Both the position numbers and the translations under genes were made by a program. Under the pieces are notes generated by a model. It was not told the origin of the DNA. It searched no databases and saw only the letters and a list, made by a program, of their open reading frames with translations. A DNA stretch of 64,000 nt from Auanema rhodensis (Eukaryota > Animalia > Nematoda), in the NCBI GenBank assembly GCA_964057225.1, contig CAXKVF010000097.1:1-64000 (forward strand), written 5' to 3'. Shown here piece after piece: positions 6,234 to 32,787 of the stretch (positions are counted from its first letter, which is position 1; each line of letters opens with the position of its first letter).

Positions 6234-8262
6234 ATGGAATATACAGGACGCTTCATAAATGGAGTTTCTCAAGCTGCTCAATATGATTTTCTAGATCGGG
6301 CAGCGGACAAAGATGCTGAATATGTATCACATTCTGTGAGTTTTAAAACATTTTTACGCATAGGTTTCTACAATTTTAGACTGAATTCAATAATACAATT
6401 GTTGGTACTGAACAATTTTTCGAAACTTCAATTGAGGAAAATGTTGCAGAGGAATTAGAGGAAAACCCATCAAACCAAAAAGTAAGCATTGTGTTCAAGA
6501 AATTTAAAATGTAAAAACTTTGTTTTCAGATGAATGAAATCGCATTATATCACGAACAGAAAAATAAAAATATTTCAGAAAAACTTATGTTGCAAAATCA
6601 AGACAGTAGTTATAGGATTGATGAAATGAAAATTGTTTGCAGAAATGCAATTACCAGCTTTTTCGCTGATAGAATTTCAGCAAATGGCGAATCGGCACCA
6701 ACCCACTCAGGAATCAACAACTATAATATTGTAGAAGTTGTAGAGGAAGAAGATTATTCGGAGAAACTAATCGAAAACGAACAATTTATGGATTATGACA
6801 ATTCGAACAATGTCGACTGGTTAAACGCACCAATCAAAACAATTATTAAAGAGGTGAAACATTTAGGCTTGATATTTAAAACTTTTTCTGTAGATAAACG
6901 CCACGAAGGAACCGTCAAATTTCGATGTGATGATAAGTGTTTTCTGTTTAATTCAGTTCACAACAACACTACAAATGAACAGGTTTGGAAAATGGTTAAA
7001 ATTCTGTTTTTCAGAACAACAATGTGACCATGTTGTGAACGTCAAGTCGTTCAAAATACGGGCAATTGAATGCGGTTCTCCCAAAAATTGCGATAATACA
7101 GTACATGTAAGTTATCACAATCTTTTCCTGAATGCTTATCCATTTTTCTATTTCCAGATAATTTTGCATTTTGAATCTATCACAAAAAGAAAAGTGATAT
7201 CCTCGTTTTTCAATCATCTCGTGAATGTGAACAAAAATGAAGAAGAAACAATGATCAAACTGACACCCATTCAGTGTCAAAGAGAACTTCAAAGAATGAG
7301 AAAACTAATGGCGGAAGATGTCATCAGCTATCAAGGTTTTTTAATTTCAAAAATATTACTGATTAACAAAAATATGAAACATTTTAGGAACTGTAATAAA
7401 CGACATATCTCTTCATTATCTCTATATAATGGAAAACGAAATACAAAAAAACAGCTGGAAGTTGACGGTAAGTAATAAGTTTTTCGAGCAATATTATTTT
7501 TTTTAGAACTGCATGGAATTGCGTTATGATGTAGCTATGCGGCATCAATCACAATTAAAACACTTAATATCCCTCGTTGACGATGCTGAATGTGATAGAA
7601 AGGATGTACGAGTATATATACTCTACGGAGATTCTGGAGCAGGCAAATCTTATTTTGCTAAGAAGTATCTCGGTATGAATTTTTTAAATTAATTTTCAAA
7701 TTTGAAAGAACTATTTCAGAAAAAGTTGCCGGCTCTGTGTATACAACATCTGCTGATTGTACTAGTTATTTTGAAAGTGAGTTTCAACTTTGTTCCGATA
7801 AAAAAAATAATTTATAGAATATAACAAGCAAAATGGAATTATAATTGATGAAGTTGAACAGTTCGGACAACGTGGGTACATGACAGGAAAACAGCTCTTA
7901 ATGATGTGTAATGATGGTACCTGCAGGTAAGTGTTGAACACAAAAATAGTATTACTAAACCCATTTTTTCAGATTGAACGTTAAATTTTCAAGTTGTGTC
8001 ATAAAAGCCCATCATATCTTTCTTATTTCGAACATAGAACCTTCGCAATGGTTTGGGAATGATCATATAACAGTGAGTTCCCGAAAAGGTTAAAAATTAC
8101 ATTTGGTTTCAGTTGACAGCGTTCATGAGACGAATACATTGGATTGGCAAAGCAACCGAATTGAAATCTCAACCGAAATGGAGGAGAGGAAAAGCATTTG
8201 AAACAGTCTTGAAAATTAATCCTAATTATATAATAGATGTCCCTTTTGTGGAATTAAACTGA
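6234..8262 (+). CDS. Intron-containing CRESS-DNA-virus (circovirus-like) Rep homologue: degenerate HUH domain plus SF3 helicase
   Basis: 11 exons (6234-6335, 6380-6481, 6530-6853, 6894-7106, 7158-7335, 7388-7467, 7507-7672, 7720-7776, 7818-7926, 7973-8072, 8113-8262) splice in frame through GT..AG introns of 39-52 nt. Motifs: Walker A VYILYGDSGAGKS; YFEKYNKQNGIIIDE (compare WWDGY..VVIDD, Walker B); LLMMCN...LNVK (motif B'); IFLISN..PSQWF (motif C); AFMRRI (arginine finger). The exon 3/4 boundary is the least certain. Confidence 0.85.
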
Positions 8263-8890: not shown

Positions 8891-9678
8891 AAATTGGAGA
8901 GAAGACACCTGAGATCTGACGTTGATTATCACGGCCATATTTCATGTTTCATCGCGGAAGAAATTCTTCCATCTGAAAATGTAGATTAAAAAAAATGTTG
9001 TGCAGCAGAAATTTGTGATTATTTCAAGAAAATTATTTGAAAACTAAAGAAAGCAGAATTTATAAATATTGGAGAAATTCTTCCATAATTTCCATGATTC
9101 TTGTTTCATCATATACTATATTCAGTTTTCTCGAAAAAGATAAAAAGAAAATTCTACCTATATAAAAAGGTAAATGATTTGTTTTCTAATTTACTTTGAC
9201 TATATATACACATGTTTATATGTGAGATTTGTTCTAACTAGTTCATGTATACAAACCCAATCTTTTTTCAAAGATGTCCTTTTTACATTTTTTCAACAAA
9301 TAAAAATGATTAGCTGTTTTTCATCAATATCAATTTTAAATTCATAGTTATTGCTTTACAAAAAATTATATTTAGGTTTTTCTAAATAAAGGTGAAAATC
9401 AATTTCTTCGATCAACTTATTTTTGAAAACCTTTTGCTTCTGGCATAGTATTCAAAAAATACTGACATCATTGTCAGCCGATAGCAAAATGTTAACTTAC
9501 TAGCATCATAAATGCAATAAACTATCCAATCTTTTACCGCTTTGCCACCCTGGGCTATAAGAATTTGATAGTCAGAGTATATATAAATAGACATAATTCT
9601 TTTTTTCTTGTATTTTTTTTAGTCTGACATTAATTACTTTGTTATTTGGATATTTTCCAGATTTAAATATCCGTAATC

Positions 9679-10667
9679 ATGTCAATGATTAGTACCAACA
9701 TTGAAAAGAAAACTGCTACTACGTATAAACATACTCTACTTTCCGCGGAACAAATAAATACAGAACTTGATTCATTTGAGTTTCAGAATGAAAATTTGGA
9801 TATTCTTCCAAATGGTCAGGTTTTTAAAAAATAATTTTTTTATGTTATCAAATTGTTTTCAGATTTACAAATTGTTGATATAATCGAGTTTCAAGGATTG
9901 CGATGTTCAACACCTTTGAGCGAAAGAAAGTTACCAAGTGTCGATAAGTTCATCTTAAAAGGTACAAACGTGTAATGAATAACAAATTTTTTTATCAAAT
10001 TTTCAGAAGAACCATTAGACGTTTCTGATATTCCATGTAAAAAAATTGGAAAAGGTTTGATCAATGTAAAAGTGTCTGTCAATTTATATTTTTCAGTTGT
10101 AGCTGTTTCTCATAAGCCTCATGAAGTTCAAAATGGCTGTTCCATTGAGGAAATAAAAAAAAAGAAGAAGTTCAGGAGATGTTATTACTGAGTGCAAATG
10201 TGAAATTGCACATCTTAAAAATAGGGCTATTTCGAAAATTGCTAGTAAGAATTTTAAACATATTCAAATCTCAATAAAATGTCTATTTTTAGAAAATTTT
10301 CAACTGATTGACGAAAGGCAAATCATTCCTGAATACTGCACAATTGGTTGCAAAATTTTGGTGTATCATAAAATAACACGCTCCTGGCGCCTAGCCATTA
10401 TTGAAGATATTTCGGATGTCTATAGTAGCATAAAATATTCGCTGATGACAGTGAGTTTTGTTTTGTTTCCCAAATTTTGAGTATTGTTATTTTCAGATCG
10501 ATGACGTGCAAGATAAAATGATTGCAAAAAAATATCATTTTTTGTTCGCGAAAACAAGACTTGTGGGAAAAGAAAAAAATTGGCCAAAGCACATGTATAG
10601 ATTAGTATGCGATGATATTTCCGAGCCACATCTCTACTTGATTCAATCATTAAAAGATCTTGCTTGA
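9679..10667 (+). CDS. Spliced gene 'family B' (CxC plus Tudor-like segment plus PKH..L.C.D motif), copy 1; frameshifted at an A9 homopolymer
   Basis: ATG lies downstream of a TTTTCCAG acceptor. Six exons give MSMISTNIEKK...VITECKCEIAHLK...CKILVYHKITRSWRLAIIEDI...KNWPKHMYRLVCDDISEPHLYLIQSLKDLA*. The A-run is 9 here versus 11 in the intact copies. Confidence 0.6.
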
Positions 10668-11316
10668 ATATATGTAACCTTTTTCATATATTCTCATTTT
10701 TAAATTTTACTCGTTTTTACATTTTTCATGCCATCCATCAATCCTCATTTTGTGATAAAAAATAAAAAGTTTTACGATCGATTTGAGTATTTTTCTACAT
10801 ATCAGAGCATATTGAAATTGTGTTCAATCATTAAAACAAGTTTAGTTCAGTCTTATGAAACGTTTTATATTTTATAAAAAAAACATATTTTAACAATTGA
10901 ATTGTTGTTCATTGATACCTGTTAAAATGCTCAACCTTTTGCCTGTTTTGTTTTGTTACAACTAACAAATTTATTAAAAAAAATACCACAACCCAATCAA
11001 TCTTAGAAGTTCAATAAAATATAAAAAAATATAAAAATATTTTAAACATATTTTGAACCAATTCTATATGTAAAAAGCAGTTGTCTATTTGTTAAAATAT
11101 TCTAAATTAGTGAAAGAACTTCTTCCATTCACAAGAAACTTAAATTGGTGTGAGAGTTTGTTTCATAATTTTTTTTGCGGAAATCAAGATATAGGTTTTT
11201 TTAAATATCAATTTACAATTCATTTCCTATGCGTCTATTTTCAGATGAACTATTTTGAATATTTTATTCAATTATATTAGCTTAATTAATTTACAAATTA
11301 TACAATCCTTTTACAG

Positions 11317-11570
11317 CTACCTCATTGGAAAATGGAACAAGGTAAAAATTGGCCCCGCTGGGGCATCAGGACTAGGACTTTTTGCTGCAAGTGATATAGA
11401 GGTCAGGGGGTTAAGAAGCTCAATAAATATTACATATTCAGGCTGGAAGTTACATATGCGGATACGAGGTGTTGCCAACAAAAAAAAAAGAAGGGTGTTA
11501 TATAGTTAATAAAGGAGGAACCTGGGATGCTGAGAAGTTCAAGAAGCTTTACGAAAAAGTATATTTATGA
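11317..11570 (+). pseudogene. N-terminal SET-domain fragment (truncated histone-lysine-methyltransferase-like), copy 1
   Basis: Two exons (intron 11402-11441) give KVKIGPAGASGLGLFAASDIE|AGSYICGYEVL...GCYIVNKGGTWDA, matching the SET GxGLFAxxxIxxGxxIxxY and Y...DA motifs. It ends before the RFINHSC motif. Confidence 0.7.
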
Positions 11571-11659
11571 CTATTATATATATGACTATTATATAGACGA
11601 CTATTATATATACGACTATTATACTATCCCCCTGATCTTCCTTCTCCAAATTCCCCTGA

Positions 11660-13081
11660 TCTTCCTCCTCCCCGCTCTCCTCTCTCGACCTCTGGTCCAA
11701 CCTCTCTCTCCCCTCCGGTAACGGCAGCGCATTCTCTCTGCCGCGCGCCTATCGTGCTAGCCTGACGGCCTCTGTTGAGCTGTCCGGCCAGCGCCGCTCG
11801 TGGGGCTCCGAGCTCTACCAACAGGTAGAGCTCTCACCCACGGCGGATTCGAGTCCTCCTCCCGGCCTTCTCCCCCCTGCCCCGGTCCTCCCCCAAAACA
11901 GTTCCGGAGTCAAATTGTGGCAGTCTGTCGCCCGTGGTGGACTTGTCCCCCTTGACCCCGTCCCTTTTGACTTCCGCGGGGTCGTGCGAGTGCTTGGGTG
12001 CACTATAGCCCGAGTCTCCTCCGTAGGTGACGGGTTCGAGCTCGCTCCCCCCCCCGGCGGCGAGCGCCTCACCCATATCAGCACCCTCGTGGCGCCGATT
12101 TCCGACTCCAACCGGCTGATTGCGGTCCCCCGTATCTGGGCCGGCACCCCGTCTGTGCCTGCCACGGCTTTCTCCGTCCTGTACAGGGCAGCTCAGGTTG
12201 CTGGGTCCGGTGTGGTTACCAACAGCCTGGTGGGTGAGCCCGGACGCGGTGGGGCGGGCGACGTCCAGCTCGTCCTGCCATACCCCCGCGGCGCCGAGCT
12301 CGCCAATGCCTGCGTCCACGCCCTGAACTACCTCGCGGCCCATTACGAAGCCGCCGAGGCCCCCTCCCACTTTCTGGTGGCCCTCTGGATGGGCCTAACC
12401 GACCACGTACGTCCCGGTAATCCGTATGGCGACAGTGGAGGTGTGTGCAGTTTGGCCGGTAGAGGTGCCTCTTACCCCCCCGGCTTCGGTTACCTGTCAC
12501 CGGAAGTCGTGCCCTCGACGGCCCTGCCACTCCTCCCACGGGGCGCCTCTCTAGCCCAGGTTGTCCACTGGGTCGACAGCCTAGTCCTCACGCTAGGGGC
12601 GATTGTCTCATCCGTCCCCCCATCAACGGTTAACAAGGGGCGGCTGTACGACGCCGTGTGTGTAGCCCCCGGCGCTAGCCAGTTGGATGACGACGAGGCA
12701 GGGCTCAATGACGCAGCCCGGTGGGATGTCCGTCTGGCCGCCAGCGGGCCCATCGACGCCCTCTGCGGCAGGGTGGTACGCTCTTGGTGCCGGTGCCTTG
12801 GGTTCAAGGCCGAGAGCTCCGGCGCCACCCACCTCGGCTCGGCGGTCCACCACCTATTGGCCGCCGAGGACCTGCTCCCGGCCGGGCCCGAAAACGAGGT
12901 CTGGTTCCCCTGGTTGGAAAACGAGCCGACGGGCCTGGTCGACCCCGACTGGTGCTCCCCAGAAGTTTCTGCCCCCCTCGGCGGACCCGTGTGCCCGCCT
13001 CAGTGTCGGAGCTCAGCCGCCAGCACCCCCCCCCCCGTTAAGCCTAAGCTCGATATGCCTAAGCCTGAGTATGATAGTTAA
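11660..13081 (+). mobile_element. Endogenous viral element: toti/victorivirus-like dsRNA-virus capsid gene (N-terminal ~460 aa), copy 1, uninterrupted frame without ATG
   Basis: Abrupt GC-rich island with a stop-free frame of 473 codons. Recognisable victorivirus-type coat blocks: RAYRASLTASV...LYQQV; FSVLYRAAQVAGSGVVTN; GAELANACVHALNYLAAHYEAAEAPSHFLVALWMGL; DSGG...YPPGFG; LPLLP...WVDSLVLTLGAIVSSVPP...GRLYDAV. Confidence 0.8.
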
Positions 13082-13508
13082 GCCTAAGCTCGATATGCCT
13101 AAGCCTGAGTATGATAGTTAAGCCTAAGCCTAAGCCTAAGCCTAAGCCTAAGCCTAAGCCTAAGCCTAAGCCTGAAAAACTCGCAGATATCATCAACCAA
13201 CTGGATGAGAATGAGTTCAATAATTTTCAGGAAATTATTAATACCAGAAGGTTTAACAATGCTATAGGTTTGAAATCAAAAAACATTTTATGCTTAATAA
13301 AACTTTTTTTAGGACTTGAAACAGTCTCCCAGTTCCGAGGCATAAATTTAGAAGTTATCAATGACTTGGTAGCAGATACTAATGAAGAAGGTAAAATATT
13401 TTCAATTATAATAAACTTGTCATTTTTTAAGCTTTTGAGACAGATTTAATTGATACAATTGAAGAACTTTCCGGTATAAAAGCGGAAAAAAAGGATGAGA
13501 CATATTGA
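13037..13508 (+). pseudogene. 40-bp telomere-like duplication plus (AAGCCT)9 tract running in frame (KP repeats) into a spliced 3' gene fragment, copy 1
   Basis: KPKP..PEKLADIINQLDENEFNNFQEIINTRRFNNAI|GLETVSQFRGINLEVINDLVADTNEE|DLIDTIEELSGIKAEKKDETY* through two GT-AG introns. The stop codon coincides with the unit junction. Confidence 0.6.
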
Positions 13509-14124
13509 TAAATATTGGAGAAATTCTTCCATAATTTCCATGATTCTTGTTTCATCATATACTATATTCAGTTTTCTCGAAAAAGATAAAAAGAAAATTC
13601 TACCTATATAAAAAGGTAAATGATTTGTTTTCTAATTTACTTTGACTATATATACACATGTTTATATGTGAGATTTGTTCTAACTAGTTCATGTATACAA
13701 ACCCAATCTTTTTTCAAAGATGTCCTTTTTACATTTTTTCAACAAAGAAAAATGATTAGCTGTTTTTCATCAATATCAATTTTAAATTCATAGTTATTGC
13801 TTTACAAAAAATTATATTTAGGTTTTTCTAAATAAAGGTGAAAATCAATTTCTTCGATCAACTTATTTTTGAAAACCTTTTGCTTCTGGCATAGTATTCA
13901 AAAAATACTGACATCATTGTCAGCCGATAGCAAAATGTTAACTTACTAGCATCATAAATGCAATAAACTATCCAATCTTTTACCGCTTTGCCACCCTGGG
14001 CTATAAGAATTTGATAGTCAGAGTATATATAAATAGACATAATTCTTTTTTTCTTGTATTTTTTTTAGTCTGACATTAATTACTTTGTTATTTGGATATT
14101 TTCCAGATTTAAATATCCGTAATC

Positions 14125-15115
14125 ATGTCAATGATTAGTACCAACATTGAAAAGAAAACTGCTACTACGTATAAACATACTCTACTTTCCGCGGAACAAA
14201 TAAATACAGAACTTGATTCATTTGAGTTTCAGAATGAAAATTTGGATATTCTTCCAAATGGTCAGGTTTTTAAAAAATAATTTTTTTATGTTATCAAATT
14301 GTTTTCAGATTTACAAATTGTTGATATAATCGAGTTTCAAGGATTGCGATGTTCAACACCTTTGAGCGAAAGAAAGTTACCAAGTGTCGATAAGTTCATC
14401 TTAAAAGGTACAAACGTGTAATGAATAACAAATTTTTTTATCAAATTTTCAGAAGAACCATTAGACGTTTCTGATATTCCATGTAAAAAAATTGGAAAAG
14501 GTTTGATCAATGTAAAAGTGTCTGTCAATTTATATTTTTCAGTTGTAGCTGTTTCTCATAAGCCTCATGAAGTTCAAAATGGCTGTTCCATTGAGGAAAT
14601 AAAAAAAAAAAGAAGAAGTTCAGGAGATGTTATTACTGAGTGCAAATGTGAAATTGCACATCTTAAAAATAGGGCTATTTCGAAAATTGCTAGTAAGAAT
14701 TTTAAACATATTCAAATCTCAATAAAATGTCTATTTTTAGAAAATTTTCAACTGATTGACGAAAGGCAAATCATTCCTGAATACTGCGCAATTGGTTGCA
14801 AAATTTTGGTGTATCATAAAATAACACGCTCCTGGCGCCTAGCCATTATTGAAGATATTTCGGATGTCTATAGTAGCATAAAATATTCGCTGATGACAGT
14901 GAGTTTTGTTTTGTTTCCCAAATTTTGAGTATTGTTATTTTCAGATCGATGACGTGCAAGATAAAATGATTGCAAAAAAATATCATTTTTTGTTCGCGAA
15001 AACAAGACTTGTGGGAAAAGAAAAAAATTGGCCAAAGCACATGTATAGATTAGTATGCGATGATATTTCCGAGCCACATCTCTACTTGATTCAATCATTA
15101 AAAGATCTTGCTTGA
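14125..15115 (+). CDS. Family B gene, copy 2 (frame intact)
   Basis: Same as copy 1, with an A11 run that keeps the frame. Confidence 0.65.
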
Positions 15116-15764
15116 ATATATGTAACCTTTTTCATATATTCTCATTTTTAAATTTTACTCGTTTTTACATTTTTCATGCCATCCATCAATCCTCATTTTG
15201 TGATAAAAAATAAAAAGTTTTACGATCGATTTGAGTATTTTTCTACATATCAGAGCATATTGAAATTGTGTTCAATCATTAAAACAAGTTTAGTTCAGTC
15301 TTATGAAACGTTTTATATTTTATAAAAAAAACATATTTTAACAATTGAATTGTTGTTCATTGATACCTGTTAAAATGCTCAACCTTTTGCCTGTTTTGTT
15401 TTGTTACAACTAACAAATTTATTAAAAAAAATACCACAACCCAATCAATCTTAGAAGTTCAATAAAATATAAAAAAATATAAAAATATTTTAAACATATT
15501 TTGAACCAATTCTATATGTAAAAAGCAGTTGTCTATTTGTTAAAATATTCTAAATTAGTGAAAGAACTTCTTCCATTCACAAGAAACTTAAATTGGTGTG
15601 AGAGTTTGTTTCATAATTTTTTTTGCGGAAATCAAGATATAGGTTTTTTTAAATATCAATTTACAATTCATTTCCTATGCGTCTATTTTCAGATGAACTA
15701 TTTTGAATATTTTATTCAATTATATTAGCTTAATTAATTTACAAATTATACAATCCTTTTACAG

Positions 15765-16018
15765 CTACCTCATTGGAAAATGGAACAAGGTAAAAATTGG
15801 CCCCGCTGGGGCATCAGGACTAGGACTTTTTGCTGCAAGTGATATAGAGGTCAGGGGGTTAAGAAGCTCAATAAATATTACATATTCAGGCTGGAAGTTA
15901 CATATGCGGATACGAGGTGTTGCCAACAAAAAAAAAAGAAGGGTGTTATATAGTTAATAAAGGAGGAACCTGGGATGCTGAGAAGTTCAAGAAGCTTTAC
16001 GAAAAAGTATATTTATGA
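15765..16018 (+). pseudogene. SET-domain fragment, copy 2
   Basis: Same sequence as 11317-11570. Confidence 0.7.
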
Positions 16019-16083
16019 CTATTATATATATGACTATTATATAGACGACTATTATATATACGACTATTATACTATCCCCCTGA

Positions 16084-17507
16084 TCTTCCTCCTCCCCGCT
16101 CTCCTCTCTCGACCTCTGGTCCAACCTCTCTCTCCCCTCCGGTAACGGCAGCGCATTCTCTCTGCCGCGCGCCTATCGTGCTAGCCTGACGGCCTCTGTT
16201 GAGCTGTCCGGCCAGCGCCGCTCGTGGGGCTCCGAGCTCTACCAACAGGTAGAGCTCTCACCCACGGCGGATTCGAGTCCTCCTCCCGGCCTTCTCCCCC
16301 CTGCCCCGGTCCTCCCCCAAAACAGTTCCGGAGTCAAATTGTGGCAGTCTGTCGCCCGTGGTGGACTTGTCCCCCTTGACCCCGTCCCTTTTGACTTCCG
16401 CGGGGTCGTGCGAGTGCTTGGGTGCACTATAGCCCGAGTCTCCTCCGTAGGTGACGGGTTCGAGCTCGCTCCCCCCCCCCCGGCGGCGAGCGCCTCACCC
16501 ATATCAGCACCCTCGTGGCGCCGATTTCCGACTCCAACCGGCTGATTGCGGTCCCCCGTATCTGGGCCGGCACCCCGTCTGTGCCTGCCACGGCTTTCTC
16601 CGTCCTGTACAGGGCAGCTCAGGTTGCTGGGTCCGGTGTGGTTACCAACAGCCTGGTGGGTGAGCCCGGACGCGGTGGGGCGGGCGACGTCCAGCTCGTC
16701 CTGCCATACCCCCGCGGCGCCGAGCTCGCCAATGCCTGCGTCCACGCCCTGAACTACCTCGCGGCCCATTACGAAGCCGCCGAGGCCCCCTCCCACTTTC
16801 TGGTGGCCCTCTGGATGGGCCTAACCGACCACGTACGTCCCGGTAATCCGTATGGCGACAGTGGAGGTGTGTGCAGTTTGGCCGGTAGAGGTGCCTCTTA
16901 CCCCCCCGGCTTCGGTTACCTGTCACCGGAAGTCGTGCCCTCGACGGCCCTGCCACTCCTCCCACGGGGCGCCTCTCTAGCCCAGGTTGTCCACTGGGTC
17001 GACAGCCTAGTCCTCACGCTAGGGGCGATTGTCTCATCCGTCCCCCCATCAACGGTTAACAAGGGGCGGCTGTACGACGCCGTGTGTGTAGCCCCCGGCG
17101 CTAGCCAGTTGGATGACGACGAGGCAGGGCTCAATGACGCAGCCCGGTGGGATGTCCGTCTGGCCGCCAGCGGGCCCATCGACGCCCTCTGCGGCAGGGT
17201 GGTACGCTCTTGGTGCCGGTGCCTTGGGTTCAAGGCCGAGAGCTCCGGCGCCACCCACCTCGGCTCGGCGGTCCACCACCTATTGGCCGCCGAGGACCTG
17301 CTCCCGGCCGGGCCCGAAAACGAGGTCTGGTTCCCCTGGTTGGAAAACGAGCCGACGGGCCTGGTCGACCCCGACTGGTGCTCCCCAGAAGTTTCTGCCC
17401 CCCTCGGCGGACCCGTGTGCCCGCCTCAGTGTCGGAGCTCAGCCGCCAGCACCCCCCCCCCCGTTAAGCCTAAGCTCGATATGCCTAAGCCTGAGTATGA
17501 TAGTTAA
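16084..17507 (+). mobile_element. Toti/victorivirus-like capsid EVE, copy 2 (frameshift at C11 run)
   Basis: Same as copy 1 except the poly-C run near 16471 is 11 instead of 9. Confidence 0.8.
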
Positions 17508-17916
17508 GCCTAAGCTCGATATGCCTAAGCCTGAGTATGATAGTTAAGCCTAAGCCTAAGCCTAAGCCTAAGCCTAAGCCTGAAAAACTCGCAGATATCA
17601 TCAACCAACTGGATGAGAATGAGTTCAATAATTTTCAGGAAATTATTAATACCAGAAGGTTTAACAATGCTATAGGTTTGAAATCAAAAAACATTTTATG
17701 CTTAATAAAACTTTTTTTAGGACTTGAAACAGTCTCCCAGTTCCGAGGCATAAATTTAGAAGTTATCAATGACTTGGTAGCAGATACTAATGAAGAAGGT
17801 AAAATATTTTCAATTATAATAAACTTGTCATTTTTTAAGCTTTTGAGACAGATTTAATTGATACAATTGAAGAACTTTCCGGTATAAAAGCGGAAAAAAA
17901 GGATGAGACATATTGA
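17463..17916 (+). pseudogene. Telomeric tract (AAGCCT)6 plus KP-repeat gene fragment, copy 2
   Basis: As 13037-13508, with three fewer telomeric units. Confidence 0.6.
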
Positions 17917-18532
17917 TAAATATTGGAGAAATTCTTCCATAATTTCCATGATTCTTGTTTCATCATATACTATATTCAGTTTTCTCGAAAAAGATAAAAA
18001 GAAAATTCTACCTATATAAAAAGGTAAATGATTTGTTTTCTAATTTACTTTGACTATATATACACATGTTTATATGTGAGATTTGTTCTAACTAGTTCAT
18101 GTATACAAACCCAATCTTTTTTCAAAGATGTCCTTTTTACATTTTTTCAACAAAGAAAAATGATTAGCTGTTTTTCATCAATATCAATTTTAAATTCATA
18201 GTTATTGCTTTACAAAAAATTATATTTAGGTTTTTCTAAATAAAGGTGAAAATCAATTTCTTCGATCAACTTATTTTTGAAAACCTTTTGCTTCTGGCAT
18301 AGTATTCAAAAAATACTGACATCATTGTCAGCCGATAGCAAAATGTTAACTTACTAGCATCATAAATGCAATAAACTATCCAATCTTTTACCGCTTTGCC
18401 ACCCTGGGCTATAAGAATTTGATAGTCAGAGTATATATAAATAGACATAATTCTTTTTTTCTTGTATTTTTTTTAGTCTGACATTAATTACTTCGTTATT
18501 TGGATATTTTCCAGATTTAAATATCCGTAATC

Positions 18533-19523
18533 ATGTCAATGATTAGTACCAACATTGAAAAGAAAACTGCTACTACGTATAAACATACTCTACTTTCCGC
18601 GGAACAAATAAATACAGAACTTGATTCATTTGAGTTTCAGAATGAAAATTTGGATATTCTTCCAAATGGTCAGGTTTTTAAAAAATAATTTTTTTATGTT
18701 ATCAAATTGTTTTCAGATTTACAAATTGTTGATATAATCGAGTTTCAAGGATTGCGATGTTCAACACCTTTGAGCGAAAGAAAGTTACCAAGTGTCGATA
18801 AGTTCATCTTAAAAGGTACAAACGTGTAATGAATAACAAATTTTTTTATCAAATTTTCAGAAGAACCATTAGACGTTTCTGATATTCCATGTAAAAAAAT
18901 TGGAAAAGGTTTGATCAATGTAAAAGTGTCTGTCAATTTATATTTTTCAGTTGTAGCTGTTTCTCATAAGCCTCATGAAGTTCAAAATGGCTGTTCCATT
19001 GAGGAAATAAAAAAAAAAAGAAGAAGTTCAGGAGATGTTATTACTGAGTGCAAATGTGAAATTGCACATCTTAAAAATAGGGCTATTTCGAAAATTGCTA
19101 GTAAGAATTTTAAACATATTCAAATCTCAATAAAATGTCTATTTTTAGAAAATTTTCAACTGATTGACGAAAGGCAAATCATTCCTGAATACTGCGCAAT
19201 TGGTTGCAAAATTTTGGTGTATCATAAAATAACACGCTCCTGGCGCCTAGCCATTATTGAAGATATTTCGGATGTCTATAGTAGCATAAAATATTCGCTG
19301 ATGACAGTGAGTTTTGTTTTGTTTCCCAAATTTTGAGTATTGTTATTTTCAGATCGATGACGTGCAAGATAAAATGATTGCAAAAAAATATCATTTTTTG
19401 TTCGCGAAAACAAGACTTGTGGGAAAAGAAAAAAATTGGCCAAAGCACATGTATAGATTAGTATGCGATGATATTTCCGAGCCACATCTCTACTTGATTC
19501 AATCATTAAAAGATCTTGCTTGA
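18533..19523 (+). CDS. Family B gene, copy 3 (frame intact)
   Basis: Same as copy 2. Confidence 0.65.
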
Positions 19524-20172
19524 ATATATGTAACCTTTTTCATATATTCTCATTTTTAAATTTTACTCGTTTTTACATTTTTCATGCCATCCATCAATCC
19601 TCATTTTGTGATAAAAAATAAAAAGTTTTACGATCGATTTGAGTATTTTTCTACATATCAGAGCATATTGAAATTGTGTTCAATCATTAAAACAAGTTTA
19701 GTTCAGTCTTATGAAACGTTTTATATTTTATAAAAAAAACATATTTTAACAATTGAATTGTTGTTCATTGATACCTGTTAAAATGCTCAACCTTTTGCCT
19801 GTTTTGTTTTGTTACAACTAACAAATTTATTAAAAAAAATACCACAACCCAATCAATCTTAGAAGTTCAATAAAATATAAAAAAATATAAAAATATTTTA
19901 AACATATTTTGAACCAATTCTATATGTAAAAAGCAGTTGTCTATTTGTTAAAATATTCTAAATTAGTGAAAGAACTTCTTCCATTCACAAGAAACTTAAA
20001 TTGGTGTGAGAGTTTGTTTCATAATTTTTTTTGCGGAAATCAAGATATAGGTTTTTTTAAATATCAATTTACAATTCATTTCCTATGCGTCTATTTTCAG
20101 ATGAACTATTTTGAATATTTTATTCAATTATATTAGCTTAATTAATTTACAAATTATACAATCCTTTTACAG

Positions 20173-20426
20173 CTACCTCATTGGAAAATGGAACAAGGTA
20201 AAAATTGGCCCCGCTGGGGCATCAGGACTAGGACTTTTTGCTGCAAGTGATATAGAGGTCAGGGGGTTAAGAAGCTCAATAAATATTACATATTCAGGCT
20301 GGAAGTTACATATGCGGATACGAGGTGTTGCCAACAAAAAAAAAAGAAGGGTGTTATATAGTTAATAAAGGAGGAACCTGGGATGCTGAGAAGTTCAAGA
20401 AGCTTTACGAAAAAGTATATTTATGA
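20173..20426 (+). pseudogene. SET-domain fragment, copy 3
   Basis: Same sequence as 11317-11570. Confidence 0.7.
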
Positions 20427-20491
20427 CTATTATATATATGACTATTATATAGACGACTATTATATATACGACTATTATACTATCCCCCTGA

Positions 20492-21914
20492 TCTTCCTCC
20501 TCCCCGCTCTCCTCTCTCGACCTCTGGTCCAACCTCTCTCTCCCCTCCGGTAACGGCAGCGCATTCTCTCTGCCGCGCGCCTATCGTGCTAGCCTGACGG
20601 CCTCTGTTGAGCTGTCCGGCCAGCGCCGCTCGTGGGGCTCCGAGCTCTACCAACAGGTAGAGCTCTCACCCACGGCGGATTCGAGTCCTCCTCCCGGCCT
20701 TCTCCCCCCTGCCCCGGTCCTCCCCCAAAACAGTTCCGGAGTCAAATTGTGGCAGTCTGTCGCCCGTGGTGGACTTGTCCCCCTTGACCCCGTCCCTTTT
20801 GACTTCCGCGGGGTCGTGCGAGTGCTTGGGTGCACTATAGCCCGAGTCTCCTCCGTAGGTGACGGGTTCGAGCTCGCTCCCCCCCCCCGGCGGCGAGCGC
20901 CTCACCCATATCAGCACCCTCGTGGCGCCGATTTCCGACTCCAACCGGCTGATTGCGGTCCCCCGTATCTGGGCCGGCACCCCGTCTGTGCCTGCCACGG
21001 CTTTCTCCGTCCTGTACAGGGCAGCTCAGGTTGCTGGGTCCGGTGTGGTTACCAACAGCCTGGTGGGTGAGCCCGGACGCGGTGGGGCGGGCGACGTCCA
21101 GCTCGTCCTGCCATACCCCCGCGGCGCCGAGCTCGCCAATGCCTGCGTCCACGCCCTGAACTACCTCGCGGCCCATTACGAAGCCGCCGAGGCCCCCTCC
21201 CACTTTCTGGTGGCCCTCTGGATGGGCCTAACCGACCACGTACGTCCCGGTAATCCGTATGGCGACAGTGGAGGTGTGTGCAGTTTGGCCGGTAGAGGTG
21301 CCTCTTACCCCCCCGGCTTCGGTTACCTGTCACCGGAAGTCGTGCCCTCGACGGCCCTGCCACTCCTCCCACGGGGCGCCTCTCTAGCCCAGGTTGTCCA
21401 CTGGGTCGACAGCCTAGTCCTCACGCTAGGGGCGATTGTCTCATCCGTCCCCCCATCAACGGTTAACAAGGGGCGGCTGTACGACGCCGTGTGTGTAGCC
21501 CCCGGCGCTAGCCAGTTGGATGACGACGAGGCAGGGCTCAATGACGCAGCCCGGTGGGATGTCCGTCTGGCCGCCAGCGGGCCCATCGACGCCCTCTGCG
21601 GCAGGGTGGTACGCTCTTGGTGCCGGTGCCTTGGGTTCAAGGCCGAGAGCTCCGGCGCCACCCACCTCGGCTCGGCGGTCCACCACCTATTGGCCGCCGA
21701 GGACCTGCTCCCGGCCGGGCCCGAAAACGAGGTCTGGTTCCCCTGGTTGGAAAACGAGCCGACGGGCCTGGTCGACCCCGACTGGTGCTCCCCAGAAGTT
21801 TCTGCCCCCCTCGGCGGACCCGTGTGCCCGCCTCAGTGTCGGAGCTCAGCCGCCAGCACCCCCCCCCCCGTTAAGCCTAAGCTCGATATGCCTAAGCCTG
21901 AGTATGATAGTTAA
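20492..21914 (+). mobile_element. Toti/victorivirus-like capsid EVE, copy 3 (frameshift at C10 run)
   Basis: Same as copy 1 except the poly-C run near 20879 is 10. Confidence 0.8.
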
Positions 21915-22323
21915 GCCTAAGCTCGATATGCCTAAGCCTGAGTATGATAGTTAAGCCTAAGCCTAAGCCTAAGCCTAAGCCTAAGCCTGAAAAACTCGCA
22001 GATATCATCAACCAACTGGATGAGAATGAGTTCAATAATTTTCAGGAAATTATTAATACCAGAAGGTTTAACAATGCTATAGGTTTGAAATCAAAAAACA
22101 TTTTATGCTTAATAAAACTTTTTTTAGGACTTGAAACAGTCTCCCAGTTCCGAGGCATAAATTTAGAAGTTATCAATGACTTGGTAGCAGATACTAATGA
22201 AGAAGGTAAAATATTTTCAATTATAATAAACTTGTCATTTTTTAAGCTTTTGAGACAGATTTAATTGATACAATTGAAGAACTTTCCGGTATAAAAGCGG
22301 AAAAAAAGGATGAGACATATTGA
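21870..22323 (+). pseudogene. Telomeric tract (AAGCCT)6 plus KP-repeat gene fragment, copy 3
   Basis: As copy 2. Confidence 0.6.
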
Positions 22324-22939
22324 TAAATATTGGAGAAATTCTTCCATAATTTCCATGATTCTTGTTTCATCATATACTATATTCAGTTTTCTCGAAAAAG
22401 ATAAAAAGAAAATTCTACCTATATAAAAAGGTAAATGATTTGTTTTCTAATTTACTTTGACTATATATACACATGTTTATATGTGAGATTTGTTCTAACT
22501 AGTTCATGTATACAAACCCAATCTTTTTTCAAAGATGTCCTTTTTACATTTTTTCAACAAATAAAAATGATTAGCTGTTTTTCATCAATATCAATTTTAA
22601 ATTCATAGTTATTGCTTTACAAAAAATTATATTTAGGTTTTTCTAAATAAAGGTGAAAATCAATTTCTTCGATCAACTTATTTTTGAAAACCTTTTGCTT
22701 CTGGCATAGTATTCAAAAAATACTGACATCATTGTCAGCCGATAGCAAAATGTTAACTTACTAGCATCATAAATGCAATAAACTATCCAATCTTTTACCG
22801 CTTTGCCACCCTGGGCTATAAGAATTTGATAGTCAGAGTATATATAAATAGACATAATTCTTTTTTTCTTGTATTTTTTTTAGTCTGACATTAATTACTT
22901 CGTTATTTGGATATTTTCCAGATTTAAATATCCGTAATC

Positions 22940-23929
22940 ATGTCAATGATTAGTACCAACATTGAAAAGAAAACTGCTACTACGTATAAACATACTCTAC
23001 TTTCCGCGGAACAAATAAATACAGAACTTGATTCATTTGAGTTTCAGAATGAAAATTTGGATATTCTTCCAAATGGTCAGGTTTTTAAAAAATAATTTTT
23101 TTATGTTATCAAATTGTTTTCAGATTTACAAATTGTTGATATAATCGAGTTTCAAGGATTGCGATGTTCAACACCTTTGAGCGAAAGAAAGTTACCAAGT
23201 GTCGATAAGTTCATCTTAAAAGGTACAAACGTGTAATGAATAACAAATTTTTTTATCAAATTTTCAGAAGAACCATTAGACGTTTCTGATATTCCATGTA
23301 AAAAAATTGGAAAAGGTTTGATCAATGTAAAAGTGTCTGTCAATTTATATTTTTCAGTTGTAGCTGTTTCTCATAAGCCTCATGAAGTTCAAAATGGCTG
23401 TTCCATTGAGGAAATAAAAAAAAAAGAAGAAGTTCAGGAGATGTTATTACTGAGTGCAAATGTGAAATTGCACATCTTAAAAATAGGGCTATTTCGAAAA
23501 TTGCTAGTAAGAATTTTAAACATATTCAAATCTCAATAAAATGTCTATTTTTAGAAAATTTTCAACTGATTGACGAAAGGCAAATCATTCCTGAATACTG
23601 CGCAATTGGTTGCAAAATTTTGGTGTATCATAAAATAACACGCTCCTGGCGCCTAGCCATTATTGAAGATATTTCGGATGTCTATAGTAGCATAAAATAT
23701 TCGCTGATGACAGTGAGTTTTGTTTTGTTTCCCAAATTTTGAGTATTGTTATTTTCAGATCGATGACGTGCAAGATAAAATGATTGCAAAAAAATATCAT
23801 TTTTTGTTCGCGAAAACAAGACTTGTGGGAAAAGAAAAAAATTGGCCAAAGCACATGTATAGATTAGTATGCGATGATATTTCCGAGCCACATCTCTACT
23901 TGATTCAATCATTAAAAGATCTTGCTTGA
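22940..23929 (+). CDS. Family B gene, copy 4 (frameshift at A10 run)
   Basis: Same as the other copies apart from homopolymer length. Confidence 0.55.
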
Positions 23930-24481
23930 ATATATGTAACCTTTTTCATATATTCTCATTTTTAAATTTTACTCGTTTTTACATTTTTCATGCCATCCAT
24001 CAATCCTCATTTTGTGATAAAAAATAAAAAGTTTTACGATCGATTTGAGTATTTTTCTACATATCAGAGCATATTGAAATTGTGTTCAATCATTAAAACA
24101 AGTTTAGTTCAGTCTTATGAAACGTTTTATATTTTATAAAAAAAACATATTTTAACAATTGAATTGTTGTTCATTGATACCTGTTAAAATGCTCAACCTT
24201 TTGCCTGTTTTGTTTTGTTACAACTAACAAATTTATTAAAAAAAATACCACAACCCAATCAATCTTAGAAGTTCAATAAAATATAAAAAAATATAAAAAT
24301 ATTTTAAACATATTTTGAACCAATTCTATATGTAAAAATCAGTTGTCTATTTGTTAAAATATTCTAAATTAGTGAAAGAACTTCTTCCATTCACAAGAAA
24401 CTTAAATTGGTGTGAGAGTTTGTTTCATAATTTTTTTTGCGGAAATCAAGATATAGGTTTTTTTAAATATCAATTTACAAT

Positions 24482-24920
24482 AATTGTGGTGACCAACAAA
24501 TGGATGAAGTTCTCGTTACTTATTCTTTATAAACCCAAATCAAATTACTTAGGCGCTATCATTATTAAAAGGTATACACGGAATGAACCGATGAACTGTA
24601 AAATTTAAAAAGAAAATCATTAAAAAAATAAAAATAAATAATTTCTTAGTAATAAAAGAAGTAATATATAATATAAAATATTGTGGTGACCAACAATTGG
24701 ATGAAGTTCTCGTTACTTATTCTTTATAAACCCAAATCAAATTACTTAGGCGCTATCATTATTAAAAGGTATACACGGAATGAACCGATGAACTGTGAAA
24801 TTTAAAAAGAAAATAATTAAAAAAAGAAAAAAAAAGTTCTCGTTACTTATTCTTTATAAACCCAAATCAAATTACTTAGGCGCTATCATTATTAAAAGGT
24901 ATAAACGGAATGAACCGATG
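24482..24920 (-). repeat. About 2.5 inverted copies of the 197-bp repeat
   Basis: Reverse complement of the units at 27386-29985. Confidence 0.9.
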
Positions 24921-25268
24921 ATATAATAAAAAATAAAAATATTTAAGAATCTAAATAAACTAACTTCTTGGAAAGCTAGAAGTTGATGTTGCTGATTCTG
25001 ATATAATATAATTTAATATAATGTAACGACTAATCCAAATTCTCTAAATCAAAAACTGAAAATTGAATAAATATTCTGAAACTACTTGACTTACTCGAGA
25101 TTTGAATAAATTATAGAAACAATTTTAATATATATAAGTAATATAAAATGAATAAAAATCTAAATAAACTAACTTCTTGGATAGCGAGATGTTGATGTTG
25201 CTGATTCTGCTGCGTGTTAAAGATCCATTCATCGGGAACAATGTGAGTTCATTTTCTCAACCCCTCTC

Positions 25269-25275
25269 TTATATA
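25269..25275 (-). promoter_or_regulatory. TATA box (GTATATAAG) of the leftward promoter
   Basis: Matches the nematode GTATAWWAG consensus, immediately downstream of HSEs on the minus strand. Confidence 0.55.
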
Positions 25276-25284
25276 CCTTTACCG

Positions 25285-27015
25285 TGAGAATTTCTGGAAA
25301 ACTATCGAATGTTCTAGAATGTTCGATAGTTTTCCAGAAAGTCTCACGATGGTAGTTTTCCAGAAATTCTCACGTTTCAAAATAGAACATGACTATTGAT
25401 CTACTTGAGATTTACTTTTGATAAACAACTACACAATTCTTCATGTAACTATTCCATATTATTCTAAAACATTCTAGAACATTCTAGAACATTCCAGAAT
25501 ATTCTAGAACATTCCAGAATATTCTAGAACATTCTAGAACATTCCAGAATATTCTAGAACATTCCAGAATATTCTAGAATATTCCAGAACATTCTAGAAC
25601 ATTCCCGAACATTCAAGAACATTCTAGAACATTCCTGAATCTTCTAGAATGTTCTAGAATGTTTGAGAATGAAAAAGAATGCTCTCTTTTTTGATTTCAA
25701 AATGTTCAATCAATAGTTACATGAAGAATTGTGTAGTTGTTTATCAAAAGTAAATCTCAAGTAAGTCAATAGTCATGTTCTATTTTGAAACGTGAGAATT
25801 TTTCGAAAAATATCATCATGAGAATTTCTGGAAAATTCTAGAATATTTTCAAATGTTCTATTCGAAAGTTCTGAAATATTCTGGAATGTTCTAGAATAAA
25901 ACAGAATAATTTTTAGATTGTTCTAGAATATTCTAGAATTTTCCAGAAATTCTCATGATGTTATTTTTCGAAAAATTCTCACGTTTCAAAATAGAACATG
26001 ACTATTGACTTACTTGAGATTTACTTTTGATAAACAACTACACAATTCTTCATGTAACTATTCCATATTATTCTAAAACATTCTAGAACATTCTAGAACA
26101 TTCCAGAATATTCTAGAACATTCCAGAATATTCTAGAACATTCCAGAATATTCTAGAACATTCCAGAACATTCGAGAACATTCTAGAACATTCCTGAATC
26201 TTCTAGAATGTTCTAGAATGTTTGAGAATGAAAAAGAATGCTCTCTTTATTGATTTCAAAATGTTCAATCAATAGTTACATGAAGAATTGTGTAGTTGTT
26301 TATCAAAAGTAAATCTCAAGTAAGTCAATAGTCATGTTCTATTTTGAAACGTGAGAATTTTTCGAAAAATAACATCATGAGAATTTCTGGAAAATTATAG
26401 AATATTCTAGAACAATCTAAAAATTAATCTGTTTTATTCTAGAACATTCCAGAATATATCAGAACTTTCGAATAGAACATTTGAGAATATTCTAGAATTT
26501 TCCAGAAATTCTCATGATGTTATTTTTCCAAAAATTCTCACGTTTCAAAATAGAACATGACTATTGACTTACTTGAGATTTACTTTTGATAAACAACTAC
26601 ACAATTCTTCATGTAACTATTGATTGAACATTTTGAAATCAACAAAAAGAGAGCATTCTTTTTCATTCTCAAACATTCTAGAACATTCCTGAATCTTCTA
26701 GAATGTTCTAGAATGTTCCGGAATGTTCTAGAATGTTCTGGAATGTTCTAGAATATTCTGGAATGTTTGAGAATATTCTGGAATGTTCTAGAATGTTCTA
26801 GAATGTTTTAGAATAATATGGAATAGTTACATGAAGAATTGTGTAGTTGTTTATCAAAAGTAAATCTCAAGTAAATCAATAGTCATGTTCTATTTTGAAA
26901 CGTGAGAATTTCTGTAAAACTATCATCGTGAGACTTTCTGGAAAACTACCATCGTGAGATTTTCTGGAAAACTATTGAACATTCTAGAACATTCGATAGT
27001 TTTCCAGAAATTCTC
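25285..27015. promoter_or_regulatory. Heat-shock-element (nGAAnnTTCn) minisatellite arrays
   Basis: 10-bp period TTCTAGAACA/TTCCAGAATA, i.e. continuous alternating nGAAn pentamers, in blocks at about 25461-25665, 26070-26230 and 26670-26815, plus scattered sites. Confidence 0.8.
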
Positions 27016-27025
27016 ACGGTAAAGG

Positions 27026-27032
27026 TATATAA
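27026..27032 (+). promoter_or_regulatory. TATA box (GTATATAAG) of the rightward promoter
   Basis: Mirror copy of the above. It is followed by a CTCACATT initiator-like sequence ~25 bp downstream and a clean gtaagt...ttttcag intron near 27212-27251. Confidence 0.55.
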
Positions 27033-27385
27033 GAGAGGGGTTGAGAAAATAAACTCACATTGTTCCCGATGAATGGATCTTTAACACGCAGCAGAATCAG
27101 CAACATCAACTTCTCGCTATCCAAGAAGTTAGTTTATTTAGATTTTTATTCATTTTATATTACTTATATATATATATATTAAAATTGTTTCTATAATTTA
27201 TTCAAATCTCGAGTAAGTCAAGTAGTTTCAGAATATTTATTCAATTTTCAGTTTTTGATCTAGAGAATTTGGATCAGTCGTTACATTATATTAAACTATA
27301 TTATATCAGAATCAGCAACATCAACTTCTAGCTTTCCAAGAAGTTAGTTTATTTAGATTTTTAAATATTTTTATTTTTTATTATA

Positions 27386-29985
27386 TCATCTGTTCATTCC
27401 GTGTATACCTTTTAATAATGATAGCGCCTAAGTAATTTGATTTGGGTTTATAAAGAATAAGTAACGAAAACTTCATCCATTTGTTGGTCACCACAATATT
27501 TTATATTATTTATTAATTCTTTTATTACTAAGAAATTATTTCTTTTTCTTTTTTTAATGATTTTCTTTCTGATTTTCACAGTTCATCGGTTCATTCCGTG
27601 TATACCTTTTAATAATGATAGCGCCTAAGTAATTTGATTTGGGTTTATAAAGAATAAGTAAGGAGAACTTCATCCATTTGTTGGTCACCACAATATTTTA
27701 TATTATTTATTACTTCTTTTATTACTAAGAAATTATTTATTTTTCTTTTTTTAATGATTTTCTTTCTAAATTTCACAGTTCATCGGTTCATTCCGTGTAT
27801 ACCTTTTAATAATGATAGCGCCTAAGTAATTTGATTTGGGTTTATAAAGAATAAGTAACGAGAACTTCATCCATTTGTTGGTCACCACAATTATTTATAT
27901 TATATATTACTTCTTTTATTACTAAGAAATTATTTCTTTTTCTTTTTTTAATGATTTTCTTTTTAAATTTCACAGTTCATCGGTTCATTCAGTGTATACC
28001 TTTTAATAATGATAGCGCCTAAGTAATTTGATTTGGGTTTATAAAGAATAAGTAACGAGAACTTTATCCAATTGTTGGTCACTAGAATATTTTATATTAT
28101 ATATTACTTTTTTTATTACTAAGAAATTATTTATTTTTATTTTTTTAATGATTTTCTTTTTAAATTTCACAGTTCATCGGTTCATTCCGTGTATACCTTT
28201 TAATAATGATAGCGCCTAAGTAATTTGATTTGGGTTTATAAAGAATAAGTAACGAGCACTTCATCCATTTGTTGGTCACCACAATATTTTATATTATATA
28301 TTACTTCTTTTATTACTAAGAAATTATTTATTTTTATTTTTTTAATGATTTTCTTTTTAAATTTCACAGTTCATCGGTTCATTCCGTTTATACTTTTTAA
28401 TAATGATAGCGCCTAAGTAATTTGATTTGGGTTTATAAAGAATAAGTAACGAGAACTTTATCCAATTGTTGGTCACTAGAATATTTTATATTATATATTA
28501 CTTCTTTTATTATTAAGAAATTTCTAAAGTTTTTCTTTCTAAATTTCACAGTTCATCGGTTCATTCCGTGTATACCTTTTAATAATGATAGCGCCTAAGT
28601 AATTTGATTTGGGTTTATAAAGAATAAGTAACGAGAACTTTATCCAATTGTTGGTCACTAGAATATTTTATATTATATATTACTTCTTGTATAACTAAGA
28701 AATTTCTAATGTTTTTCTTTCTAAATTTCACAGTTCATCGGTTCATTCCGTGTATACCTTTTAATAATGATAGCGCCTAAGTAATTTGATTTGGGTTTAT
28801 AAAGAATAAGTAACGAGAACTTTATCCAATTGTTGGTCACTAGAATATTTTATATTATATATTACTTCTTTTATTACTAAGAAATTTCTAATGTTTTTCT
28901 TTCTAAATTTCACAGTTCATCGGTTCATTCCGTGTATACTTTTTAATAATGATAGCGCCTAATTATTTTGATTTGGGTTTATAAAGAATAAGTAATGAGA
29001 ACTTCATCCATTTGTTGGTCACCACAATATTTTATATTATATATTACTTTTTTTATTACTAAGAAATTATTTATTTTTTTTCTTTTAATGATTTTCTTTC
29101 TAAATTTCACAGTTCATCGATTCATTCCGTTTATACCTTTTAATAATGATAGCGCCTAAGTAATTTGATTTGGGTTTATAAAGAATAAGTAATGAGAACT
29201 TCATCCATTTGTTGGTCACCACAATTATTTATATTATATATTACTTCTTTTATTACTAAGAAATTATTTCTTTTTCTTTTTTTAATGATTTTCTTTTTAA
29301 ATTTTACAGTTCATCGGTTCATTCCGTGTATAATTTTTAATAATGATAGCGCCTAAGTATTTTGATTTGGGTTTATAAAGAATAAGTAACGAGAACTTCA
29401 TCCATTTGTTGGTCACCACAATATTTTATATTATATATTACTTCTTTTATTACTAAGAAATTATTTATTTTTATTTTTTTAATGTTTTTCTTTCTAAATT
29501 TCACAGTTTATCGGTTCATTCCGTGTATACCTTTTAATAATGATAGCGCCTAAGTAATTTGATTTGGGTTTATAAAGAATAAGTAACGAGAACTTCATCC
29601 ATTTGTTGGTCACCACAATTATTTATATTATATATTACTTCTTTTATTACTAAGAAATTATTTCTTTTTCTTTTTTTAATGATTTTCTTTTTAAATTTCA
29701 CAGTTCATCGGTTCATTCAGTGTATACCTTTTAATAATGATAGCGCCTGAGTAATTTGATTTGGGTTTATAAAGAATAAGTAATGAGAACTTCATCCATT
29801 TGTTGGTCACCACAATATTTTATATTATATATTACTTCTTTTATTACTAAGAAATTATTTCTTTTTCTTTTTTTAATGATTTTCTTTCTAAATTTCACAG
29901 TTCATCGGTTCATTCCGTGTATATCTCTTGATAATGATACCGCCTAAGTAATTTGATTTGGGTTTATTAAGAATGAGTAACGAAC
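27386..29985 (+). repeat. Tandem array of 197-bp units (three are 182 bp), about 14 copies; one more diverged copy at ~30950-31055
   Basis: GTTCATCGGTTCATTCC (or single-base variants) recurs at 27581, 27778, 27975, 28172, 28369, 28551, 28733, 28915, 29112, 29309, 29506, 29703 and 29900. Confidence 0.95.
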
Positions 29986-32737: not shown

Positions 32738-32787
32738 GCGGGGGCGCGGGGGCGGCAGCCCCTGCATGTAGATATAGAAATAACTAG
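32738..32787 (+). mobile_element. GC-rich hairpin followed by CTAG: Helitron/rolling-circle-like 3' terminus
   Basis: GCGGGGGC-GGCA-GCCCCTGC forms an 8-bp stem with one G:T and a GNRA loop at 32746-32765. CTAG at 32784-32787 directly abuts telomeric repeats. Confidence 0.5.

Follow-up and report, generated by a model that had tools for sequence, protein, structure and literature searches.

A toti-like dsRNA-virus capsid fragment joined to host DNA and telomere repeats in the genome of the nematode Auanema rhodensis

The locus and its surroundings

The window, i.e. the whole stretch of DNA that was analysed, comprises the 64,000 nucleotides at positions 1 to 64,000 of contig CAXKVF010000097.1 from Auanema rhodensis (assembly GCA_964057225.1). 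An earlier note, made from its letters without database searches, had described a sharply bounded GC-rich island of 1.4 kb in AT-rich DNA. Exactly this was found, with a GC content of 67% (GC3 74%) versus 28% in either flank and with sharp edges. The + strand of the island holds a stop-free frame of 473 codons at 11660–13081, and the remaining five frames of the insert contain 8–13 stops. Using 2,000 first-order Markov resamples of the insert for comparison, not a single one reached the 459 open viral codons (median 190, maximum 437). The open frame claimed in the earlier note therefore goes beyond chance; however, its last 14 codons (residues 460–473) and the stop are encoded by telomere-variant filler of the host, not by the virus. 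Its start had been placed about 255 nt before an “annotated” ORF, which is explained by the first TTG of the frame at 11915, 255 nt in. As had also been noted, the capsid frame 11660–13081 lacks an N-terminal ATG, Met codons occurring at residues 244 and 466, and no RdRp-like long ORF was found in the window. A further GC island was likewise absent from the window. The two scanned antisense ORFs of the insert gave no match in Pfam, and the region 11200–14000 gave none in Rfam. Positions of the features are summarized in Table 1.

Table 1. Coordinates of the capsid fragment copies, their junctions and the surrounding host features in the window.
Feature	Position	Strand	Description	Evidence
Tandem array	9058..24481	+	3.5 units of about 4.4 kb (9058-13503, 13504-17911, 17912-22318, partial 22319-24481)	blastn, pairwise alignments
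Interrupted gene, two host exons	11318..11558	+	no Pfam match	
Possible TSD, left	11553..11558	+	GAAAAA ending left host exon	
5' junction filler	11560..11623	+	4.3 iterated copies of 15-bp unit	TRF
Direct duplication at insert start	11629..11676	+	24 nt, copy 1 only; absent from X1, X4 and X9 contigs	
Capsid fragment copy 1	11660..13036	+	459 codons, open, without start ATG; about N-terminal 55-60% of toti-like coat	PF05518, E 1.7e-17; 33 capsid-like matches; LRV1 fold match
3' junction filler	13037..13118	+	40-bp telomere-variant repeat; gives last 14 codons and stop	TRF
Pure telomere tract	13119..13173	+	(TAAGCC)x9 in copy 1, x6 in copies 2 and 3	
Possible TSD, right	13174..13179	+	GAAAAA opening right host flank	
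Capsid fragment copy 2	16084..17462	+	frame broken at poly-C	
Capsid fragment copy 3	20492..21869	+	frame broken at poly-C	

The insert interrupts a host gene, the two left exons of which resemble the start of a SET domain in their motif. Host exon sequence breaks off at 11558 and resumes from 13174, and the host frame stops just before the insert. The hexamer GAAAAA stands at either end in the same host frame, with a background of 4 occurrences in 2,823 host bases. For the 15-bp filler no source elsewhere was detected by k-mer search of one 4.4-kb unit, except for one 10-mer. The last viral letters on the 3' side, up to 13036, form a C run. The filler that follows was aligned to the host 21-bp satellite at 4–215 with a score of 72 (reached by 0 of 1,000 shuffles), versus 52 for pure telomere, and by this alignment is kin of that satellite. 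Read from the right host flank, the G-strand of the pure telomere tract leads into the viral antisense strand. A poly-A tail is absent, with no A or T run of at least 8 within or after the insert, and a retroelement-sized ORF or LTR was found neither nearby nor at either junction. Repeats of the TTAGGC type are present in the window, and the sequencing runs contain them at very high depth; TTAGGC is the telomere repeat of Caenorhabditis (PMC6800518). Together with the introns of the flanking genes described below, these repeats make a nematode the probable host.

Further repeats of this kind were observed at a distance from the insert. Behind the 21-bp telomere-variant satellite at 4–215 come an AT microsatellite and an array based on 11 bp that reaches 3600. 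At 32786–33223 a second internal telomere tract, (GCCTAA)x20, links unique DNA to the inverted 324-bp start of a 176-bp satellite and looks like another healed or fused break. The satellite itself is homogeneous (33223–64000, about 175 copies, 98–100% identity) and extends up to the window end.

The units of the tandem array are mostly host DNA and are 99.2–99.8% identical, with 1–4 substitutions and few indels between units. Among the three insert copies that they carry, 0 substitutions were found. As the junctions are common to all copies, one integration with subsequent segmental amplification is indicated. The earlier statement that the capsid was amplified three times is correct for the number of copies; however, the virus was copied within a 4.4-kb host unit (3.5 units) and not alone. 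At a poly-C run near codon 130 the frame is lost in copies 2 and 3. Absence of stops, as claimed before, thus applies to copy 1, which is open throughout, but not to copies 2 and 3, and openness hinges on a slippery homopolymer. Copy 1 stands apart: it has the 24-nt duplication and a telomere tract longer than the others, and its unit differs in poly-A length at 10154; its homopolymer lengths may be assembly errors.

Several neighbouring features were recorded. A multi-exon host gene at 9680–10670 (+ strand), repeated in the array copies, gave no Pfam match in the two exons scanned; in unit 1 alone its frame is interrupted by the poly-A at 10154, the frame around this position being open in the other array units, and an approximately 86% identical paralogue is present in runs X1 and X4. 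The fourth array unit is cut off by a nested palindromic element at 24466–29983 with inverted arms of about 2 kb and 10-bp internal repeats, which is flanked on both sides by 197-bp repeats in opposite orientation and is possibly a foldback-type transposon. Left of the array, at 7508–8260 (+ strand), lies an intron-split P-loop NTPase gene, whose Walker A exon yielded weak AAA and RNA_helicase matches below the cut-off. Its motif order across exons resembles that of CRESS-virus Rep proteins in their superfamily 3 helicase, and judged from its sequence the gene may be an old, intronised descendant of an ssDNA virus. Introns of the flanking genes are short and AT-rich and end in TTTCAG.

Capsid identity and relation to victoriviruses

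The insert was confirmed as an endogenous viral element derived from the capsid gene of a toti-like dsRNA virus. The profile comparison with Totivirus_coat (PF05518), which the earlier note had proposed as a check of this origin, gave 63.3 bits and thus exceeded the gathering threshold of 25 bits. Residues 103–430 were aligned to profile positions 100–423 of 759, in agreement with the suspected truncation of the C-terminus. The capsid frame starts about where canonical coats start and ends slightly beyond the EPT motif, therefore about 40% of the coat is missing at the C-terminal side. A phmmer search of 1.84 billion representative proteins yielded 33 matches at E<=0.001. The best match, P0001, is a protein of 867 aa with 30% identity and 122.5 bits, followed by a runner-up with 60.8 bits. 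Nine of the ten best matches (P0002–P0010) are canonical coats scoring 355–643 bits on PF05518. P0001 itself showed no Pfam match at E<=0.001 in our scan and bears a precomputed PF05518 label on its record. It is encoded on a single Logan contig of 3,350 nt and is likely the coat of an undescribed toti-like virus. A profile made from the other 32 matches scored the ORF with 117 bits and P0001 with 80 bits, the best of 200 shuffles reaching -2.8; we are aware that these 32 proteins were chosen by likeness to the ORF.

Additional searches returned little. Word-based homologue searches with the ORF, at near and longer lengths, found nothing, and with the two-sequence alignment P0001 only. The single ORF sequence had no sequence match in the PDB. 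The A1 alignment profile retrieved the capsids of Leishmania RNA virus 1 (LRV1) from the PDB at 3.5e-77, but this profile is dominated by other coats and the value is therefore not direct evidence. The ESM Atlas contained no usable match for the ORF and only weak unrelated ones for P0001, and searches of viral contigs gave nothing. A metagenome contig match (L001) was rejected, as it represents the antisense frame of a bacterial gene, presumably similar to RimK.

Structure prediction was performed with AlphaFold2. The 33-row alignment resulted in a model with a pLDDT of 77 and a pTM of 0.85; the single-sequence model (pLDDT 32) was useless. Using Foldseek, the predicted model was matched to the LRV1 capsid at E 5.8e-13 and a TM of 0.70. 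Comparison with 6y83_A gave a Z of 22.7 and an rmsd of 3.9 over 417 aligned residues, so that model residues 8–457 would have their fold in common with capsid residues 15–459. The predicted model also matched victorivirus coats in a viral structure library and, in the fold search, Hubei toti-like virus 1 with 24% identity over 277 columns. Since victorivirus-type coats supplied the alignment behind the model, these fold matches are not independent of them. According to this model, a Ghabrivirales capsid fold is predicted over the insert.

The coat had been called victorivirus-type. This holds for the predicted fold and the Pfam family: the insert resembles Victorivirus/Leishmaniavirus-type coats (PF05518; LRV1, PDB 6Y83 and 7NS2) in its profile match and in an EPT motif near residue 422. 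At the finer level it is overstated: of the 54 columns that are conserved across 80% or more of 31 canonical coats the ORF keeps only 31, and its 63 bits on PF05518 are far from the values of the canonical coats given above. In two quick trees the ORF paired with P0001 apart from the 31 canonical coats (SH-aLRT 99); these trees have long branches, biased composition, a midpoint root and unnamed rows, and rows of <=500 aa or with <=200 residues in the shared region were left out. With its long branches and biased composition, the tree leans against a nesting of the coat among canonical victorivirus-type coats. The genus Victorivirus is marked by RdRp phylogeny and by a stop/restart junction between coat and RdRp, and its hosts are fungi; the insert ends mid-capsid. 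By sequence and predicted fold we would describe it as a toti-like coat of the victori/leishmania fold, not as a demonstrated victorivirus. The source virus likely came from a little-sampled branch.

Integration and copy number in independent DNA data

Nine of the 13 listed runs, from three studies and with three organism labels, hold 77–91% of the words of insert plus flanks; one of these runs, the best, may be the source sample. No RNA run stood among those listed, which is no evidence on expression either way. Contigs of four runs (X1, X4, X9, X10) were aligned to 11120–14400. The seven listed contig pieces on the insert, from these four runs, showed 0 substitutions. The 5' junction is bridged by contigs of X1 (11493–12062) and X9 (11422–11687), bridging contigs being found in studies P1 and P3. 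In study P2 one contig covers the insert from the 5' filler into the 3' filler. At the other side, contigs of X1 and X4 extend beyond the insert by 30 letters of telomere-variant filler, with a bar of 31 letters in the tool used, and the telomere tract is joined to the right flank in contigs of X1 (13158–13846) and X9 (13147–13502). The whole telomere tract was spanned by no listed contig, and the 3' junction is represented by abutting pieces plus the assembly. Of the DNA across both junctions that the earlier note had asked for, the 5' half was thus obtained as bridging contigs and the 3' half as abutting pieces only. The depth of the insert is of the same order as that of the flanks; in X4 it amounts to 27.5, with 28–42 for the flanks and 6 for the diverged paralogue.

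With the 5' junction bridged in independent DNA contigs, chromosomal integration is real. Homology and joining to host DNA together define the insert as a non-retroviral endogenous viral element, and since it occurs in three studies with a common 5' junction, germline inheritance would be implied. No joint skipping the insert, i.e. no empty site, was seen in 4 of the 13 listed runs, with X10 thinly covered; X10 as a candidate empty-site strain was rejected, as parts of the insert are present at a depth of 2–4. Record 19 of X4 (by our own reading of the table) is unchanged over 13172–13400 and then continues leftwards with about 1 kb of DNA unlike this stretch, which is more in keeping with a rearrangement junction than with a clean insertion.

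A contig of X1 spans the unit boundary 13503/13504, and a loose end of X4 at this place matches the unique left entry 9028–9057; taken alone, both are also compatible with only one insert whose flank is duplicated. The assembly shows tandem amplification of the whole unit, for which contigs give weak support. The copy number of three is that of the assembly, and contig depth fits several copies but is no copy number. With respect to the poly-C run, contigs of X1 and X4 show the form of copy 2, and X9 has another length that causes no shift of the copy 1 frame.

The insertion is probably young, because 0 substitutions were found among three copies and seven contig pieces from four runs and because the GC content is not ameliorated; this age is uncalibrated, as the runs differ little in the flanks too. 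The recent integration proposed earlier is upheld by these two observations, but the absence of stops, on which it had also been based, is true of one copy.

Origin of the insert and its significance

We consider it probable that the 5' part of a toti-like capsid gene entered the genome once, as cDNA captured when a germline break was mended by error-prone repair, and was later duplicated together with the adjoining host DNA in the 4.4-kb unit. To our knowledge toti-like viruses encode no reverse transcriptase, therefore we infer that part of the viral plus-strand RNA was turned into cDNA by a reverse transcriptase of the host. Polymerase-theta-type end joining would then have patched the cDNA into a break within the host exon; at the 5' end it would have synthesized the iterated templated filler, and at the 3' end it would have drawn on telomere and telomere-variant repeats. 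Finally, the entire unit would have been amplified in tandem. Both the reverse transcriptase and the repair pathway are read from the junction anatomy alone. In C. elegans, templated insertions are described as the hallmark left by theta-mediated end joining (PMC8034613). As the integration took place in the germline, a virus of the worm itself is perhaps about twice as likely a source as a fungal or protist virus. In a survey of parasitic nematodes, 36 of 91 viruses belonged to the Totiviridae, more than to any other family (PMC11445058).

Among the alternatives, the telomere repeats themselves may have initiated the capture, a course of events that we regard as unlikely. A break healed with telomere repeats would have offered a G-rich 3' overhang, which would have primed reverse transcription on the viral plus-strand RNA by telomerase or by the reverse transcriptase of a telomere-associated retroelement, and the capped end would later have been linked to the other end of the break by end joining. 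The polarity fits, with the G-strand leading into the capsid antisense strand, although the chance of this is 1 in 2. The capsid start is kept and the 3' part is gone, which is the opposite of the usual LINE product, LINE products being usually 5'-truncated. Moreover, the right flank ends with AGG on the G-strand, a possible seed for telomerase, and nematode telomerase heals breaks with 1–3 nt of priming (PMC11347171). However, the repeats adjoining the virus are variant kin of a satellite 11 kb away, which suggests DNA copying, no complementarity between repeat and virus is visible at the join, and a single event is all there is. The same doubt applies to the more specific proposal that a telomeric overhang primed reverse transcription of a dsRNA virus of the nematode itself, one belonging to a little-sampled branch next to the victori- and leishmaniaviruses, and that the end was then fused and amplified. 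A little less likely still appears a retrotransposon-mediated insertion into the exon, by LINE target-primed reverse transcription or LTR template switch, with a 6-bp TSD and the fillers as by-products. Such elements are usually proposed to have integrated with the help of retroelements (PMC12922265), and the GAAAAA in the same host frame at both ends would be in line with it. However, neither poly-A nor a retroelement ORF or LTR is seen at the junctions, the insert does not contain the 3' end of the viral RNA, and record 19 of X4 puts the former adjacency of the flanks in doubt. A retrotransposon origin can have the step of reverse transcription by the host in common with capture during break repair.

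Two further explanations concern the nature of the insert rather than its route. Domestication, either as an expressed protein or by amplification under selection for antiviral small RNAs, is improbable in our view. In its favour, the frame of copy 1 is open and preserved by the poly-C form of X9, the unit is amplified in tandem, and a translated toti-like element is known from planthoppers (PMC10636211). Nevertheless, there is no start ATG, the host frame ends before the insert, contigs of X1 and X4 are frame-broken like two of the three copies, and with zero substitutions nothing is there to show selection. An intact translatable frame is consequently not present in all carriers, two of three copies and two of three runs covering the poly-C being broken. 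We infer that the fragment makes no capsid protein, because it lacks a start ATG and the C-terminal 40%, the host frame stops just upstream, and two of the three copies lose the frame at the poly-C. At most, read-through RNA from the insert could feed small-RNA pathways. By far the least probable, and largely refuted, is an assembly chimera or a contaminant from a fungus, a protist or a virus-derived library artefact. The GC contrast is extreme, the best run may be the source sample, and copy 1 differs from three well-covered runs in the 24-nt duplication and in homopolymer length, which makes local assembly errors likely. Yet contigs of P1 and P3 bridge the 5' junction, the P2 contig runs from filler to filler across the insert, and a gene of an RNA virus is not expected at flank-like depth in DNA of three studies. 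The chimera, named in the earlier note as the alternative, is thus rejected by DNA contigs of three studies with 0 substitutions, two of them bridging the 5' host junction.

Capsid-derived elements of toti-like (Ghabrivirales) viruses have been described for Trichinella genomes (PMC13483474), and nematodes are named among the known hosts of toti-like elements (PMC10636211). The Trichinella elements are alike in the nematode host, the partial capsid and their mostly recent integration; their viruses were placed in a proposed new suborder, with matches of about 0.5–0.6 kb (PMC13483474). Compared by description only, the available part of that report describes neither a telomere-repeat junction nor tandem amplification for them, unlike the insert here (PMC13483474). 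In planthoppers, capsid or RdRp fragments likewise reside in eukaryote chromosomes, and some are transcribed, piRNA-yielding or translated, whereas the present insert is known from DNA alone (PMC10636211). For the junctions, likenesses exist in Caenorhabditis, where interstitial telomere sequences form composites of perfect and degenerate TTAGGC at internal sites (PMC6800518) and theta-mediated insertions leave templated filler (PMC8034613). The Caenorhabditis repeats adjoin host sequence, whereas here they adjoin DNA derived from an RNA virus (PMC6800518). For a telomere-flanked element of an RNA virus no precedent was found in our literature search, a weak result since most subscription journals lie outside it. 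As far as these sources reach, toti-like capsid elements of nematodes are already published (PMC13483474, PMC10636211), and the present one is set apart by its divergent virus lineage and by the telomere-repeat junction.

The insert records contact of the germline of this lineage with a divergent toti-like virus, of which one relative with 30% identity is known, and its sequence is a probe to find the source virus. Owing to the young age the junction scars are unblurred, which is useful as the integration route of RNA viruses is usually inferred and not seen. If priming from telomere repeats were true, it would represent a new, retrotransposon-independent route of endogenisation that makes use of the ease with which nematodes cap breaks with new telomeres.
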